A stretch of DNA of 64,000 nt from Anaerolineae bacterium (GCA_050049355.1 JASFWK010000002.1:3412-67411); one strand, 5' to 3'. Shown: positions 51,774 through 64,000, counted from the first letter of the stretch. Numbers and translations are program-made. The notes: generated by a model not told the origin, from the letters alone.

Positions 51774-53462
51774 ATGCGTAGCGCGAAGAAGCTACTCTTG
51801 GTAAGCCTGTCAGTCCTGGCCGTGCTAGCCTTGCTGGCCAACTGCGGTCCCACCACCACCCCCACTGTGGAAGAACCCCCCAGCGAAGAGACGGAAACGG
51901 AAGAAGAGCCCACTGTTGAGCCCACGACCCCGCCCGAACCCACCATCCTCGTCGTGGGCATGGCCGGCACTTTCAATACGCTTGATCCAGCCGACCACCG
52001 CGACCGCGAGGCCGAGACAGTCATCCGGAACATGTTTGACGGGCTGGTCACCCGTGACAACACCAGCGGCGTTCACCTCGAATTGGCCGAGTCCCTGGAG
52101 TGGGTCGACGACACCACTCTGGAGATCAAGCTGCGCCAGGGCGTCCTGTTCCACGACGGCGTGGAGATGACGGCCGACGACGTTGTGTTCACCTTCGAGC
52201 GCGTGATTGAAGAAAACGCGATTGAGTACCCCGAGCCCCATACGTCGCCTCGCAAGGGGCTAATCGCTCCGCTCGAGTCTATCGAGAAGATCGATGACTA
52301 TACAGTGGTGATGCAGTTCAGTGGTCCCTGGCCACCAGCCTTGCAGATGCTCGTGCACCAGCAGATTGTGCCCAAGCACTACCTCGAAGAAGTCGGCACA
52401 GAAGGCTTCGTTGAGCATCCCATTGGCACCGGACCGTTCATGTTCGTCTCCGCGGATTCGGCAATGGAAGAGGTCGTCATAGAGCGCTTCGACGACTACT
52501 TCGGAGGTGCCCCTGACCTGGAGCCCGTGGGAATCGCCTGTGTGGATCGGGCGATCTTCCGCGTGATCCCGGAGGCCTCAACGCGGGTGGCAGCCCTGCT
52601 GGCGGGCGAGGTGGACATCATCCAGCAGGTGCCGCCGGAACTGGTCGACACCCTGTCCCAGACTCCAGGCGTTGAGGTCAGGACAGCGGCCAGCACTCAG
52701 CCCAAGTGGGTGGAGCTTAACGTGAACAGCCCGCCATTTGACGACGTGCGGGTGCGTCAAGCCATGAACTATGCCGTGGACAAGGACCTCATTATCGAAG
52801 AGATCTACGGCGGCCGCGCCGTCGCCCTCCCGGGTCCCCTTTCGCCCTTCAACAACTTCGTCAACGAGGACCTGGAACCGTACCCCTATGACCCGGACAC
52901 GGCGCTCGATCTGTTGGAGGAGGCCGGATGGACAGACTCGGACGAGGATGGCATCCTGGACAAAGACGGCCAGCCCTTCGTCTTCACCATCGACACCATA
53001 GAGGAGTGGCGACCGCTGGCCGAGGCTCTGGCCACTCAGTACCTCGCCATCGGAATCGATGCCAGCGTACGCTTCTGGGACAAGAGCGTCCTGAAGCCCA
53101 TGCTACTGGCCGGCGAGCGTCTGGCCTTCCTCGACGACTGGGGAGACTCGGCCTTTGATCCCGTCGGGCACTTCGAGGCCAAATGGCATGGCTACGTCGA
53201 AGGTCAGCCCTATGGCCGCGGCAACTTCTCCGGCTACAACAACGAGCGGGTAAACGAGCTTATCAGGCTCGGTGAGACAACCGCCGATGTCGACGAGCGA
53301 CACACGATCTACGACGAGGCTCAAGAGCTTGTCTACCAGGAAGCTCCTGCCGTGTTCTTGATTCTGCCCGAAGAGGTAGAGGCATCACAGAGCTACATCC
53401 AGAACTGGGAGCCGGCATCGGATAGCCGCATCAACCTCCACGACGTCTGCATCGAGGAGTAG
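51774..53462 (+). CDS. ABC transporter substrate-binding lipoprotein, family 5 (DppA/OppA/NikA type)
   Basis: 562 aa with a lipoprotein signal and lipobox (LALLANC), a Thr/Pro/Glu-rich linker, then SBP_bac_5-like core. Strong GGAGGAAAG RBS. Confidence 0.9.
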   Translation: MRSAKKLLLVSLSVLAVLALLANCGPTTTPTVEEPPSEETETEEEPTVEPTTPPEPTILVVGMAGTFNTLDPADHRDREAETVIRNMFDGLVTRDNTSGVHLELAESLEWVDDTTLEIKLRQGVLFHDGVEMTADDVVFTFERVIEENAIEYPEPHTSPRKGLIAPLESIEKIDDYTVVMQFSGPWPPALQMLVHQQIVPKHYLEEVGTEGFVEHPIGTGPFMFVSADSAMEEVVIERFDDYFGGAPDLEPVGIACVDRAIFRVIPEASTRVAALLAGEVDIIQQVPPELVDTLSQTPGVEVRTAASTQPKWVELNVNSPPFDDVRVRQAMNYAVDKDLIIEEIYGGRAVALPGPLSPFNNFVNEDLEPYPYDPDTALDLLEEAGWTDSDEDGILDKDGQPFVFTIDTIEEWRPLAEALATQYLAIGIDASVRFWDKSVLKPMLLAGERLAFLDDWGDSAFDPVGHFEAKWHGYVEGQPYGRGNFSGYNNERVNELIRLGETTADVDERHTIYDEAQELVYQEAPAVFLILPEEVEASQSYIQNWEPASDSRINLHDVCIEE

Positions 53463-53480
53463 CCGGCAACCCCGAATCGA

Positions 53481-53528
53481 GGTGGGGTAGATTGATGTAC
53501 TCAATCCGAGACGCCAATCTACCCCACC
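53481..53528 (+). other. perfect 14-bp stem-loop just after the SBP gene (intra-operon attenuator or mRNA-stabilising hairpin)
   Basis: GGTGGGGTAGATTG-(20 nt)-CAATCTACCCCACC, with no following T-tract. Confidence 0.5.
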
Positions 53529-61508: not shown

Positions 61509-62687
61509 ATGGACACCGTGAACGTGAGTAAGATTACGGTCTGTGGTGGAGGAAACGGTGCGCAGACCCTCGTACCCATCGCCTCTCACAACTTGCAGTG
61601 TCCGATAGACGTCTACACCCCCTTCGCCGACGAAGTCACGCGGCTGCGCGCCGGCGCTGCCCAGGGCGGGATTGAGACGGCCGGTGCCGTGCAGGTCAAG
61701 GCCCGGCCCCACAAGGTCAGCTCCGACCCCGCCGAGGTGATCCCTGGCTCCGAGGTGATCGTGCTCGTCGTGCCCGCCTTCGCCCACGAGAGCGTCCTGA
61801 GGCAGATTGTACCCTCTCTGGAAAGAAACGCGTGGGTGGGCGCCATGCCCGCCCGCGGCGGTTTTGACTACTGCGCAGCCCAAGTTCTGAGAGACGAAGG
61901 ACGAGAGGATGTAGGGATCTTTGGCCTGCAGACGCTGCCTTGGGCTTGCCGCATCCGCGAGTACGGGCGGGCAGTCCACGTCCTTGGCATCAAGAAGGTG
62001 GTAGATGCGGCCAGCCGACCAGCCGCAAAGGTCGCCGGCGTCAAGCTGATGCTGGAGCGCATGCTGGGGCTTCCCGTCAAAGCGGCAGCCAATCTCCTCT
62101 CTGTGACCCTCGCCAACACGGGACAACTCATTCACCCAGGCATCATGTATGGCCTCTTCGCCGAGTGGGATGGTACTCCATTCGGGGCGGATGAGGTCCC
62201 CCTCTTCTACCACGGTCTGGGTGAAGAAGGAGCCCGAGTGCTATCAGGCCTGAGCGACGAGGTTCAGGCCATCCGCGTGCGTCTTGAATCCAAGCTGGAC
62301 CTTTCGGCGGTGCGCCCGTTGAAGGAATGGCTGTTGCGATCATACGGTGAGGCGATCGGCGATCCGTCCAGCCTGCTGAGTGCATTTGTCACCAATCGGG
62401 CCTATACCGGGCTGAAGGCCCCTGTACGCGAGGTCTTGCCGAGCCAATTCATCCCTGATTTCCAGGCCCGGTATCTGACCGAGGATGTACCCTTTGGTCT
62501 TGCCGTCAGTCGCGCCATCGCCAGCATGGCCGACGTGGAGACGCCGGTGATGGACCAGGTAATCGGCTGGGCAAGTCACCGATTGGGCAAGCGCTACCTT
62601 GGGCAGAACTCCGATGAGGCCCGTATCCCGCAGAGGTATGGCCTGCGGAGCTTGGAGCAATTGGTCGCCTTTGCTGTCGAGGATTGA
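61509..62687 (+). CDS. NAD(P)-dependent octopine/nopaline (opine) dehydrogenase-family protein
   Basis: 392 aa with an N-terminal Rossmann fold (ITVCGGGNGAQTL), a mid-region LQTLPWACR.. and C-terminal RYLTEDVPFGL blocks characteristic of the opine dehydrogenase family. Confidence 0.75.
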   Translation: MDTVNVSKITVCGGGNGAQTLVPIASHNLQCPIDVYTPFADEVTRLRAGAAQGGIETAGAVQVKARPHKVSSDPAEVIPGSEVIVLVVPAFAHESVLRQIVPSLERNAWVGAMPARGGFDYCAAQVLRDEGREDVGIFGLQTLPWACRIREYGRAVHVLGIKKVVDAASRPAAKVAGVKLMLERMLGLPVKAAANLLSVTLANTGQLIHPGIMYGLFAEWDGTPFGADEVPLFYHGLGEEGARVLSGLSDEVQAIRVRLESKLDLSAVRPLKEWLLRSYGEAIGDPSSLLSAFVTNRAYTGLKAPVREVLPSQFIPDFQARYLTEDVPFGLAVSRAIASMADVETPVMDQVIGWASHRLGKRYLGQNSDEARIPQRYGLRSLEQLVAFAVED

Positions 62688-62762
62688 GCTGTCATACTGC
62701 ATTTGTGTCCCACCACTACCGTCGAACGTAACCACCAGAACCCTTTCGAAGGAGAGAATGTC

Positions 62763-64000
62763 GTGAGTGATGATAAGGAAACGTCAGAAGAGAAGAAACG
62801 GCGCGTGCTCGCCGGCTCCATCGGCGATTGCGTCCACTCGCTGGGCGTGGAGAGTTTCGCCGAGTGGATGGAGGACCGCGGCGAAGGCTTCGTGGCCATC
62901 AAGCTAGGACCAGCCGTGCCCATCCAGGACGTGATCAACAAGATACGCGAATCGCGTCCTGAGGTGGTCGCCATCTCCATGCGCCTGGGCGACCTGCATG
63001 TGGACAAACTCATCGGCGAGTTCATCACAAGCGCGGCGGAACACCACTTGCTCCCCCGCGAGAGCGGCATCCGCTACGCCTTTGGCGGGCTGCGTCCAGC
63101 AGCCAACCTGGTACGGGCGATGACGGGCATGCCGGTGCTGGAGGACAAGTTCTCGCCACCGGAGGATCGTCACTACGATCTGGACGATATCGTCGAGAAC
63201 TACAGCGACATCGAGGCTTTCCAAGGCTTCTTCGGCCTTGTGGTGGATGACTTCATCACCATGGAGGAATTGGAGGCATTCGCGCGGGATGAGGCTGTCG
63301 TCGATCAGGCAGAGGAGATCCACTGGAGGGATGCACTGCTGGAACGAGTCCAGCAAGTGCGAGAACTGGAGAACCGCCCCATCGTCCGCGCCCACATCGG
63401 CATCGCCGCCGACACTATTGAGCCGACGGTGGAAGCTGTCGAGATGATGGCCGACGCCGAGTGCCTGGAGATTGTCTCGCTGGCACCCGATCAGCCCTCC
63501 CAGGAGTATTTGGCCAAGTTCGTGCGGGGTGAAGAAGACCCCGACAAGTACCTCAGGGGACAGGGGGGCACGCCCATTCGCTCCAAGGAAGACCTGCGGC
63601 GCCTTAAGGAGGCCACGCAGCGGGGCAACTACCCAATGATCCGCATCTACTCCGGCACCGACGAACTGGTCGAGCTTGCCAAGCTATTCGAAGGCACTTT
63701 CAACATGCCCTTCCCGGCGGTGCCAATCTTCTTCTACAACCAGCTGGACGGACGCGGTCCCATCTCCATCCGCGACAGTTTCGACGAGCACTTTGAGGTG
63801 ATGCGCTGGTGGGCCCAACAGGGCAAAGCCGTCGAGATCAACGATCCGCACCAGTGGCAGCTGCGCAACAGCACCGATGATCTGCTGGTGGCCGATCACG
63901 TCATTGCCGGGGTGGTGGCCCTCACGATAGGCATCAAGGACTACGTGATGCAGATGATGTACGACCTACCGCCCGGCGCCTCAGGACTTAACGATCTGGC
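62763..64000 (+). CDS. B12-binding-domain-like protein fused to an uncharacterised C-terminal (probably barrel-type) domain; 3' end outside window
   Basis: My own translation of the open frame from the GTG at 62763 (GAAGGAGAG RBS) to the window edge gave no stop. The N-terminus RRVLAGSIGDCVHSLGV...VVAISMRLG...YAFGG resembles the GlmS/MetH cobalamin-binding fold. The ORF is not in the supplied track because it lacks a stop. Confidence 0.6.
   Translation, partial: MSDDKETSEEKKRRVLAGSIGDCVHSLGVESFAEWMEDRGEGFVAIKLGPAVPIQDVINKIRESRPEVVAISMRLGDLHVDKLIGEFITSAAEHHLLPRESGIRYAFGGLRPAANLVRAMTGMPVLEDKFSPPEDRHYDLDDIVENYSDIEAFQGFFGLVVDDFITMEELEAFARDEAVVDQAEEIHWRDALLERVQQVRELENRPIVRAHIGIAADTIEPTVEAVEMMADAECLEIVSLAPDQPSQEYLAKFVRGEEDPDKYLRGQGGTPIRSKEDLRRLKEATQRGNYPMIRIYSGTDELVELAKLFEGTFNMPFPAVPIFFYNQLDGRGPISIRDSFDEHFEVMRWWAQQGKAVEINDPHQWQLRNSTDDLLVADHVIAGVVALTIGIKDYVMQMMYDLPPGASGLNDL

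Follow-up and report, generated by a model that had tools for sequence, protein, structure and literature searches.

What joins a peptide-type ATP-binding cassette (ABC) importer, an MttB-superfamily methyltransferase homologue, an amide hydrolase, an opine dehydrogenase and a B12-binding protein is the question raised by a plus-strand array at one end of a 64,000-nucleotide stretch of Anaerolineae DNA (GCA_050049355.1, JASFWK010000002.1:3412-67411; the whole stretch is called the window hereafter). The array is continuous, comprises ten open reading frames (ORFs) and runs from 51774 to the window edge at 64000 (ORF listing). A preliminary description of the window had named its genes, and the ORF listing, Pfam and NCBIfam place all of them on the plus strand where that description had put them; Pfam and NCBIfam profile searches also bear out its assignments to the MttB, C45, Octopine_DH and SBP_bac_5 families. 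Our results favour a reading, which we hold to be probable with modest confidence, in which the array represents a catabolic cluster that uncultured, mostly anaerobic bacteria share and that would take up and break down a glutamyl- or opine-type conjugate by means of an adenosylcobalamin mutase and an opine dehydrogenase.

We begin with the last gene of the array, of which the window holds the first 412 codons, about one third (62763-64000, plus strand), before the gene runs off both the window and the source contig. The protein encoded there matches P0001 at 100% identity; P0001, labelled 'partial', is a 565-aa protein of an Anaerolineae metagenome-assembled genome (MAG) and itself ends at a contig edge, and an exact-match search with the opine dehydrogenase of the array returned only a 6.3-kb contig ending at the same place. 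The full extent of the gene is seen in its relatives, where ORF analysis of 83 loci found a single ORF of 1,200-1,300 aa (~1,230 aa) in 65. The domain architecture of the product is that of a fusion in the order S-E-L, in which a B12-binding domain is followed by a glutamate mutase E (GlmE)-like barrel and a GlmL/MutL reactivase. By the same ORF analysis we rejected database proteins of 633-708 aa as full-length forms, since each derives from a ~1,230-aa gene by truncation or frameshift; the public fragments of 630-710 aa called 'hypothetical' or 'MCM cobalamin-binding subunit' (MCM, methylmalonyl-CoA mutase) exist because the fusion gene is broken in assemblies. In L003 (10001-13502), L004 and L002 (10001-13691), the gene is split into pieces of 350-700 aa by frameshifts or stops. 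The names under which the fusion currently appears in databases, 'hypothetical', 'methylmalonyl-CoA mutase cobalamin-binding subunit' and 'methionine synthase', are misleading.

Taken alone, the part of the gene within the window scores below the Pfam threshold for B12-binding domains (PF02310, 29.3 bits vs a cutoff of 32.1 bits). A family profile of the N-terminal domain searched against the PDB matches corrinoid proteins and mutase small subunits with E-values from 5e-9 to 1e-3, among them the glutamate mutase small subunit GlmS (1be1, E 7e-6), and Foldseek likewise finds GlmS (1i9c_A and 1cb7_A). The B12-binding fold that the preliminary description had recognized in this gene is thus upheld by the family profile, but the protein is not a small corrinoid carrier; it is a mutase-like/GlmL fusion of ~1,230 aa. 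Within the B12 motif DxHxxG, the His and Gly are invariant and the Asp is replaced by Cys in all 65 fusions and in a sister family described below, giving CVHxxG (CxHxxG).

The barrel of ~500 aa is best seen in the AlphaFold2 model of P0004, a 71% identical homologue (pLDDT 91.2, pTM 0.86). The top Foldseek matches of this model are GlmE chains (6h9e_B and 1cb7_B; E 1e-13, TM score 0.66-0.67, ~498 aligned columns, 13% identity), followed by ornithine 4,5-aminomutase, lysine 5,6-aminomutase, methylmalonyl-CoA mutase, 2-hydroxyisobutyryl-CoA mutase and the isobutyryl-CoA mutase fusion IcmF. Searching the loci by tblastn with E. coli GlmE gave no match, and the profile search of the PDB matched B12 domains only; because the signal at the sequence level is weak, the GlmE assignment rests on the predicted fold. 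The C-terminal part is more readily recognized, with 285 bits to MutL (PF13941) and 29% BLASTP identity to GlmL of E. coli O157 (E 8e-35). It is related to GlmL without being an orthologue, since it stays under the NCBIfam cutoffs (246 vs 475 for the equivalog model and 182 vs 204 for the family model). Across the 65 fusions, the ATPase motifs DFGST and DxGGxTTD of this part are conserved and it has no Fe-S-type cysteine cluster. A role of the ATPase domain as a RamA-like reductive activase was considered and is unlikely, because no such cluster is conserved. Support for adenosylcobalamin as the cofactor comes from a CobA/BtuR-type ATP:corrinoid adenosyltransferase gene that lies directly 3' of the fusion gene in five loci. 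We also note four cysteines in the segment that links barrel and GlmL domain, at residues 490, 588, 623 and 632 of the L005 fusion (past the window end), each kept in at least 98% of the 65 fusions; at least those at 588, 623 and mostly 632 are not kept in the sister family. The four could form a metal site.

Two known arrangements come closest to this architecture. Glutamate mutase with its reactivase (GlmS/GlmE and GlmL/MutL of Clostridium; ECs_0762-0764 of E. coli O157) has the same three modules, and the adenosyltransferase gene that is adjacent in E. coli O157 is sometimes adjacent at the fusion loci as well. The modules of the fusion, however, form one chain of ~1,230 aa in the order S-E-L, whereas E. 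coli encodes each module by its own gene, ordered S-L-E; in the fusion the barrel is 13% identical to GlmE and undetectable by BLAST, CxHxxG stands in place of DxHxxG, and the fusion loci lack methylaspartate ammonia-lyase and have an opine dehydrogenase as the fixed partner instead. Because DxHxxG is not retained, GlmE and GlmL scores stay under the equivalog thresholds and the lyase partner is absent, the fusion is not a strict member of the glutamate mutase family. The second arrangement is IcmF, itself among the structural matches, in which isobutyryl-CoA mutase is covalently joined to its own cofactor-maintenance chaperone, the G-protein MeaB. The chaperone of the fusion differs in being an actin-fold GlmL ATPase rather than a G-protein, and its barrel is of the GlmE type rather than the acyl-CoA-mutase type.

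The partner of the fusion is encoded at 61509-62687 (plus strand) and is an opine (octopine-type) dehydrogenase (PF02317, Octopine_DH, 115 bits). Its residues 8-386 align with residues 4-395 of octopine dehydrogenase from the scallop Pecten maximus (3c7a, E 7.6e-70), and the phmmer alignment conserves the equivalents of His212, Arg324 and Asp329, which we take to be the catalytic residues of the Pecten enzyme; judged from the sequence, the dehydrogenase looks catalytically intact. Where a locus extends far enough upstream to tell, as it does in 73 cases, the dehydrogenase gene is the immediate 5' neighbour of the fusion gene in 66. Compared with the opine dehydrogenases of Pecten, Arthrobacter (CENDH), Agrobacterium opine catabolism and metallophore synthesis (CntM), the window enzyme shares full-length homology and conserved catalytic residues, and some opine and opine-metallophore loci also share its association with a family-5 solute-binding protein (SBP) importer. 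It differs from these systems in being obligately paired with a B12 mutase, in having no Cnt biosynthetic genes at its side and in occurring in anaerobic lineages that are not plant-associated. As a side observation, the enzyme is far nearer to the scallop dehydrogenase than to the bacterial Arthrobacter CENDH (1bg6, E 5e-18), and one may ask whether the gene has passed between bacteria and marine invertebrates.

Do these genes belong together? In a scan of one genome per species, relatives of the fusion gene were found in 177 species-level genomes, from which the best 80 loci were retrieved; later counts are over 83 or 93 loci. The phyletic spread is wide, with retrieved loci from at least nine phyla. 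The hosts of the best 80 loci include Chloroflexota (Anaerolineae, Caldilineaceae and Ardenticatenales), Bacillota, Atribacterota, Thermotogota and Bipolaricaulota/Acetothermia, together with SAR324, Desulfovibrio, Ignavibacteriales, Actinomycetota and Aerophobetes. Among 1.84 billion representatives, the family comprises 368 clusters at 50% identity (E <= 1e-3), and only two of these hold the ~1,230-aa fusions. When the proteins of the window were searched against 83 loci by tblastn, the opine dehydrogenase was present in 73, the permeases in 54-55, the SBP in 52, the ATPases in 39 and the C45 hydrolase in 31. Co-localisation of the orthologues in other genomes, set beforehand as a refutation test for the preliminary description, was thus found in dozens of genomes. 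This recurrent synteny places the arrangement far beyond chance and functionally links the genes of the array, and it identifies the opine dehydrogenase and the fused mutase as the invariant core.

Around this core the accessory genes vary. De novo clustering of neighbouring ORFs, followed by Pfam and NCBIfam searches, identified a PuuD-like Peptidase_C26 protein in 13 loci, a D-aminoacylase-like Amidohydro_3 protein in 9, a D-glutamate-cyclase-like protein (PF14336) encoded directly 5' of the dehydrogenase in 6, and an Orr-like (ornithine-racemase-like) protein together with gamma-glutamyltransferase (GGT) in 4. By their family names, these companions point to gamma-glutamyl, D-amino-acid or murein-peptide chemistry. 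Methylaspartate ammonia-lyase was found neither in the window nor in 92 loci by tblastn with the E. coli O157 enzyme.

Support for the idea that mutase and dehydrogenase form a unit of their own also comes from the sister family. Its members (~547 aa, ~33% identical) consist of a B12 domain with CVHxxG and a MutE-like barrel and have no GlmL part; they pass the Pfam model Met_asp_mut_E (29.8 bits vs a cutoff of 26.6 bits), which the fusions do not. In three of the four contexts sampled (L085 8001-11781, L093 5889-9678, L094 7001-9840 and L088 8001-9656), the sister-family gene has an Octopine_DH gene of its own, to which it is translationally coupled. The pairing of mutase and dehydrogenase therefore predates the other parts of the cluster and is of wider occurrence. 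The L085 context includes a Ddl-like ATP-grasp ligase and ABC and major facilitator superfamily (MFS) exporters, and another has a diaminopimelate (DAP) epimerase gene among housekeeping genes, suggesting that these contexts are a biosynthetic counterpart of the cluster in the window.

In the pathway that we infer, substrate, order of steps, direction and form of the cofactor included, a small amino-acid conjugate, either peptide-like or of the N-carboxyalkyl ('opine-like') kind, would enter through the Dpp/Gsi-type importer. An amide hydrolase would then free the amino-acid moiety; here this would be the C45 protein, and elsewhere a C26 gamma-glutamyl hydrolase, GGT, a D-aminoacylase-like amidohydrolase or a D-glutamate-cyclase-like protein. 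The adenosylcobalamin enzyme, sustained by its fused GlmL ATPase, would rearrange a glutamate-like skeleton, with the ATPase exchanging damaged cofactor by analogy to glutamate mutase and its chaperone. The NAD(P)-dependent opine dehydrogenase would make or break the adjoining secondary-amine or alpha-carbon centre, in place of the methylaspartate ammonia-lyase step, and the RpiR regulator may control the enzyme unit from its own promoter. The preliminary description had proposed, as one possibility, that an opine-like amino-acid conjugate is imported and dismantled step by step, which remains the best broad reading, but the role of methyl acceptor that it had offered for the B12 protein is not supported.

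Several points weigh against this pathway. The link to glutamate is drawn from a fold similarity at 13% identity and from the accessory genes, while the aminomutases are close second-best structural matches and an Orr-like racemase and a model for a 'GlmL-related ornithine degradation protein' also turn up; a reaction of the pyridoxal phosphate (PLP)-type aminomutase kind is thus conceivable for the fusion. By hhalign, the barrel is collinear with GlmE of E. coli O157 at a probability of 8%, a weak score. The substrate-binding residues of GlmE include an arginine triad and Glu171; in the hhalign alignment, which is too weak to be decisive, the arginine of the GlmE IRHGT motif stands opposite an invariant Tyr, and an invariant Arg lies two residues upstream. 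With Cys for Asp in DxHxxG, the handling of the cofactor may differ from that in known mutases, and the adjacency of an adenosyltransferase gene is limited to the five loci mentioned above. Known opine dehydrogenases act on secondary amines, and we know of no pathway that couples an opine dehydrogenase to a B12 mutase. Finally, all host genomes are MAGs of uncultured bacteria.

The array also contains a gene that lies outside the invariant core. The MttB homologue (55662-57113, plus strand; PF06253, MTTB, 321 bits) begins 8 nt 3' of a permease gene and is encoded by an uninterrupted ORF of 483 aa with no in-frame amber codon. It scores 422 bits with TIGR02369 against a cutoff of 525 bits and is therefore a non-pyrrolysine member of the superfamily. 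Its best structural counterparts are the glycine betaine methyltransferase MtgB of Desulfitobacterium hafniense (2qne/9yce, 236 bits, full-length) and MttB itself (7xcl, 215 bits), and more than 100 cluster representatives are related to it at 63-74% identity. By tblastn, an MttB gene is present in 13 of the 83 loci, in 12 of them with more than 50% identity, mostly within the Anaerolineae clade of the window. Where the locus reaches far enough, MttB is always accompanied by C45. Three MttB orthologues on long contigs, traced independently, all lie in the same type of cluster. In two of them, the gene is flanked by those of the second permease and the first ATPase, and in the third the order is RpiR, C45, MttB, dehydrogenase and fusion, with the importer divergently transcribed. 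Over the related loci, the gene that follows the second permease gene encodes an ATPase in 26 and MttB in 8, and the SBPs of operons with MttB are as similar to that of the window (60-80% identity) as those of operons without it (62-77%). Because of this variable position, the occurrence in 12 of 83 loci and the equal similarity of the SBPs, we conclude that MttB is a genuine, selected but optional member of the cluster, essentially confined to the Anaerolineae/Caldilineaceae branch. The insertion of mttB within the dpp genes, which the preliminary description had put forward as a feature of the locus, is seen in the window and its relatives, but it marks a clade-specific accessory (12 of 83 loci) rather than a defining feature.

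The partners that define a corrinoid methyl-transfer system are missing from around this MttB. By searches with a B12-domain hidden Markov model (HMM), the window and all loci with a window-type MttB are devoid of a separate small corrinoid protein; among 93 loci the only one was found in L066, which served as a positive control. There, in a Bipolaricaulota-like genome (16392-19266), a distant MttB paralogue (36% identity) and the small corrinoid protein form a classical pair 3' of the fusion gene. Pfam searches of 48 ORFs of the 64-kb window (those of at least 200 aa and the ten cluster ORFs) found no methylcorrinoid:tetrahydrofolate (THF) or coenzyme M (CoM) methyltransferase and no RamA, although these may lie elsewhere in the genome, and none was found in the flanks of L003, L004 and L089-L091. 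The preliminary description had pointed past position 64000 for such genes, but past the matching point in close relatives there is no methylcorrinoid:THF methyltransferase, RamA or CntL. The MtgB/MtgC/MtgA system of D. hafniense illustrates the difference: the window MttB aligns full-length with MtgB and has no amber codon, but it lacks a nearby corrinoid protein, THF methyltransferase and RamA and is embedded in a peptide-type ABC operon. The window MttB belongs to the superfamily without the partners of such a system. Its probable substrate is a by-product or a quaternary-amine variant of the compound that the cluster degrades, which it would demethylate onto an acceptor not encoded nearby.

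Could the whole array nevertheless be a corrinoid methyl-transfer system, in which the B12 domain of the fusion receives the methyl group that MttB removes from an imported quaternary amine, and the ATPase of the acetate and sugar kinase/Hsc70/actin (ASKHA) type serves as a RamA- or RACo-like activase? The N-terminal domain of the fusion is indeed the only B12-binding domain in loci with a window-type MttB, its profile best matches the corrinoid proteins of methyltransferases (4jgi, E 5e-9; 7xcn, E 6.5e-8), and RamA and RACo are ASKHA-type ATPases too. About 70 loci, however, have the fusion without MttB, a GlmE-fold barrel of ~500 aa would be of no use to a methyl carrier, and the ATPase part resembles GlmL and lacks the Fe-S cysteine cluster that electron transfer would call for. 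The adenosyltransferase that follows the fusion gene in five loci and the lack of a methylcorrinoid:THF or CoM methyltransferase in the window and the flanks of relatives argue in the same direction, and we regard this reading as unlikely. Less probable still is an opine metallophore of the staphylopine/Cnt kind, for which the dehydrogenase would be biosynthetic and the SBP importer would take up the metal-opine complex. Cnt loci do combine an opine dehydrogenase with a family-5 SBP importer, the NCBIfam models for CntA, CntC, CntD and CntF match partially, and the L085 context of the sister family, with its ATP-grasp ligase and ABC and MFS exporters, looks biosynthetic. The Cnt scores nevertheless fall far under their cutoffs (CntA 91 vs 800 bits, CntC 191 vs 440 bits), the neighbourhoods listed contain no gene for CntL (nicotianamine-synthase-like) or CntK (histidine racemase), and we rejected a Cnt-type metallophore on these two grounds. 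In addition, the dehydrogenase is nearest to that of invertebrates, the accessory genes encode hydrolases, the regulators (RpiR and GntR) are of catabolic type, and the window cluster has no exporter.

At the other extreme, an ordinary peptide importer might simply stand beside unrelated enzyme genes, as the great abundance of Dpp-type importers and the promoter-like site within the array would allow. We find such chance juxtaposition scarcely credible, given that dozens of genomes of several phyla have the same set of importer, hydrolase, dehydrogenase and mutase, in varied gene orders; synteny already contradicts it, and look-ups seeded with MttB orthologues recovered the same cluster in three of three cases. 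A narrower form of our favoured reading deserves more weight, although we find it rather doubtful as a specific proposal: the cluster may salvage peptidoglycan-derived or other peptides with D-amino acids (gamma-D-glutamyl peptides, for example) from necromass, with mutase and dehydrogenase catabolising the freed D- or L-glutamate. Opp/Dpp-type systems import murein peptides, and across lineages the clusters include the PF14336 D-glutamate-cyclase-like, D-aminoacylase-like Amidohydro_3, C26, GGT and Orr-like proteins and a MurR/RpiR-type regulator, with the Ddl-like ligase and the DAP epimerase beside the sister family. This evidence is indirect, being drawn from family names only, and the C26 and GGT assignments are generic; no genes specific for MurNAc or anhydro-muropeptides were seen, and MttB would be left without a role.

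Returning to the broader reading of a catabolic cluster for glutamyl- or opine-type conjugates, we can state it in a bolder form. We consider it quite possible, if short of probable, that fusion and dehydrogenase carry out an undescribed adenosylcobalamin-dependent amino-acid catabolism by which subsurface anaerobes of the Chloroflexota, Bacillota, Atribacterota, Thermotogota, Bipolaricaulota and other groups use glutamyl-, D-amino-acid- or opine-type conjugates, bypassing methylaspartate ammonia-lyase and using an unusual Cys-His cobalt-ligand motif; in the lineage of the window, a dedicated MttB clade would have joined this pathway without a corrinoid protein of its own, possibly borrowing the B12 domain of the mutase. 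The preliminary description had seen no described counterpart to the locus, and we likewise found no paper describing this gene combination in openly searchable full text, with subscription-only papers outside the scope of the search. What is new is a family of fused, probably adenosylcobalamin-dependent mutases with a fixed opine-dehydrogenase partner in a recurrent cluster for uptake and catabolism. To our knowledge, very few isomerase reactions that depend on adenosylcobalamin have been described. A conserved family whose members have the reactivase fused on and a dehydrogenase as constant partner is probably a sign either of a novel reaction or of an unfamiliar way to use the chemistry of glutamate mutase. 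Although the family is small, it is spread widely over the phylogeny, and its hosts belong to uncultured lineages of sediment, groundwater and subsurface whose carbon sources are poorly understood. We find the undescribed fusion of mutase and reactivase, together with the dehydrogenase as its obligate partner, of more interest than mttB within dpp. The orphan MttB clade poses a lesser question: the recruitment of an MttB-family gene to a peptide-importer operon without a corrinoid partner bears on the role of the many orphan MttB homologues.

The importer itself forms a complete set of the Dpp/Opp (PepT) type, with a family-5 SBP, two permeases and two oligo_HPY ATPases. The SBP gene (51774-53462, plus strand) encodes a solute-binding lipoprotein of a Dpp/Opp/Gsi/Nik-type ABC importer (SBP_bac_5, 277 bits), whose N-terminus, MRSAKKLLLVSLSVLAVLALLANCG, comprises a signal peptide ending in Cys and then a Pro/Thr/Glu-rich linker, as fits a lipoprotein. 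The protein reaches no NCBIfam equivalog cutoff, its best matches being Opp4A, NikA and GsiB, and orthologues with 60-80% identity are present in related loci. On the same strand follow the permeases of the DppB/GsiC/NikB type (53678-54688; BPD_transp_1 and BPD_transp_1_N; Opp2B 342 bits, GsiC 301 bits) and the DppC/GsiD/NikC type (54718-55653; BPD_transp_1 and OppC_N) and, beyond the MttB gene, the ATPases of the OppD/DppD type (57208-58275; ABC_tran and oligo_HPY) and the OppF/DppF type (58304-59383; ABC_tran and oligo_HPY). Based on the gene call in L001, the true start of the OppD/DppD-type ATPase is probably 57241. The likeness to the Gsi system is considerable (NCBIfam models GsiC 301, GsiD 233 and GsiB 150 bits), and some related loci have GGT or C26 gamma-glutamyl hydrolase as in a Gsi/GGT pathway. 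The scores of the window, however, stay under the equivalog cutoffs, C45 is present rather than GGT, and the chemistry of mutase and opine dehydrogenase is unrelated to glutathione catabolism.

Downstream of the importer, the regulator gene (59520-60389, plus strand) encodes an RpiR/MurR-family protein with HTH_6 and SIS domains (Pfam/NCBIfam), called as 289 aa on the identical contig L001. Its start is most likely the GTG at 59520 rather than 59361, judging from the ribosome-binding site GGAGGGGGAG, the 11/12 promoter match and the L001 gene call. RpiR is present in 14 of the 83 loci by tblastn and in 28 by clustering, and other lineages have GntR regulators instead. The next gene (60417-61499, plus strand) encodes the C45-family autoproteolytic Ntn amide hydrolase/acyltransferase (NF040521, 185 bits vs a cutoff of 85; PF03417, 83 bits), in which Gly109-Cys110, the nucleophile and self-processing site, aligns with the N-terminal Cys region of 3gvz.

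The promoter-like site lies at 59472-59500 (plus strand) and precedes the regulator gene; it consists of TTGACA, a 17-nt spacer and TACAAT with a TG and was called by consensus match only (11/12). It suggests a second transcription unit. Because the regulator start at GTG 59520 is preceded by this match and a strong Shine-Dalgarno sequence, the array probably consists of two units, one with the importer and MttB and the other with the regulator, C45, dehydrogenase and B12 gene. Another site, at 50875-50903, matches the sigma-70 consensus at 12/12 positions with an extended -10 TG, ~870 bp 5' of the SBP gene; the sole ORF between the two (51063-51422, 119 aa) has no Pfam match. Rfam at the gathering threshold found no riboswitch or leader RNA in the whole window, and at E <= 0.1 no riboswitch over 50500-53800; its single match is a tRNA gene at 2491-2564 (plus strand).

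The genes 5' of 51774 are unrelated to the array and include DNA repair genes, a GHL10 hydrolase gene and error-prone polymerase genes. A DinB-type Y-family polymerase gene (47523-48872, plus strand) forms an error-prone polymerase cassette with a DnaE2-like Pol III alpha gene (36028-39168, minus strand) and the weak IMS-family (ImuB-like) gene that it overlaps (39141-40628, minus strand). The remainder of the window holds genes of anaerobic acyl-CoA metabolism. Between 11499 and 33085 on the minus strand lie two sets of 2-hydroxyacyl-CoA-dehydratase-like genes (HGD-D; 17091-18386, 29578-30888 and 30930-32093) and dehydratase activator ATPases (BcrAD/BadFG; 11499-12272, 27843-28724 and 28736-29533), in a region that also contains CoA ligases, thiolases and enoyl-CoA hydratases. 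Together with an aldehyde:ferredoxin oxidoreductase (AFOR, 7281-9185) and a PaaX-type regulator (35045-35872), this gene set indicates strictly anaerobic metabolism of acyl-CoA or aromatic acids and thus that the host is an anaerobe.

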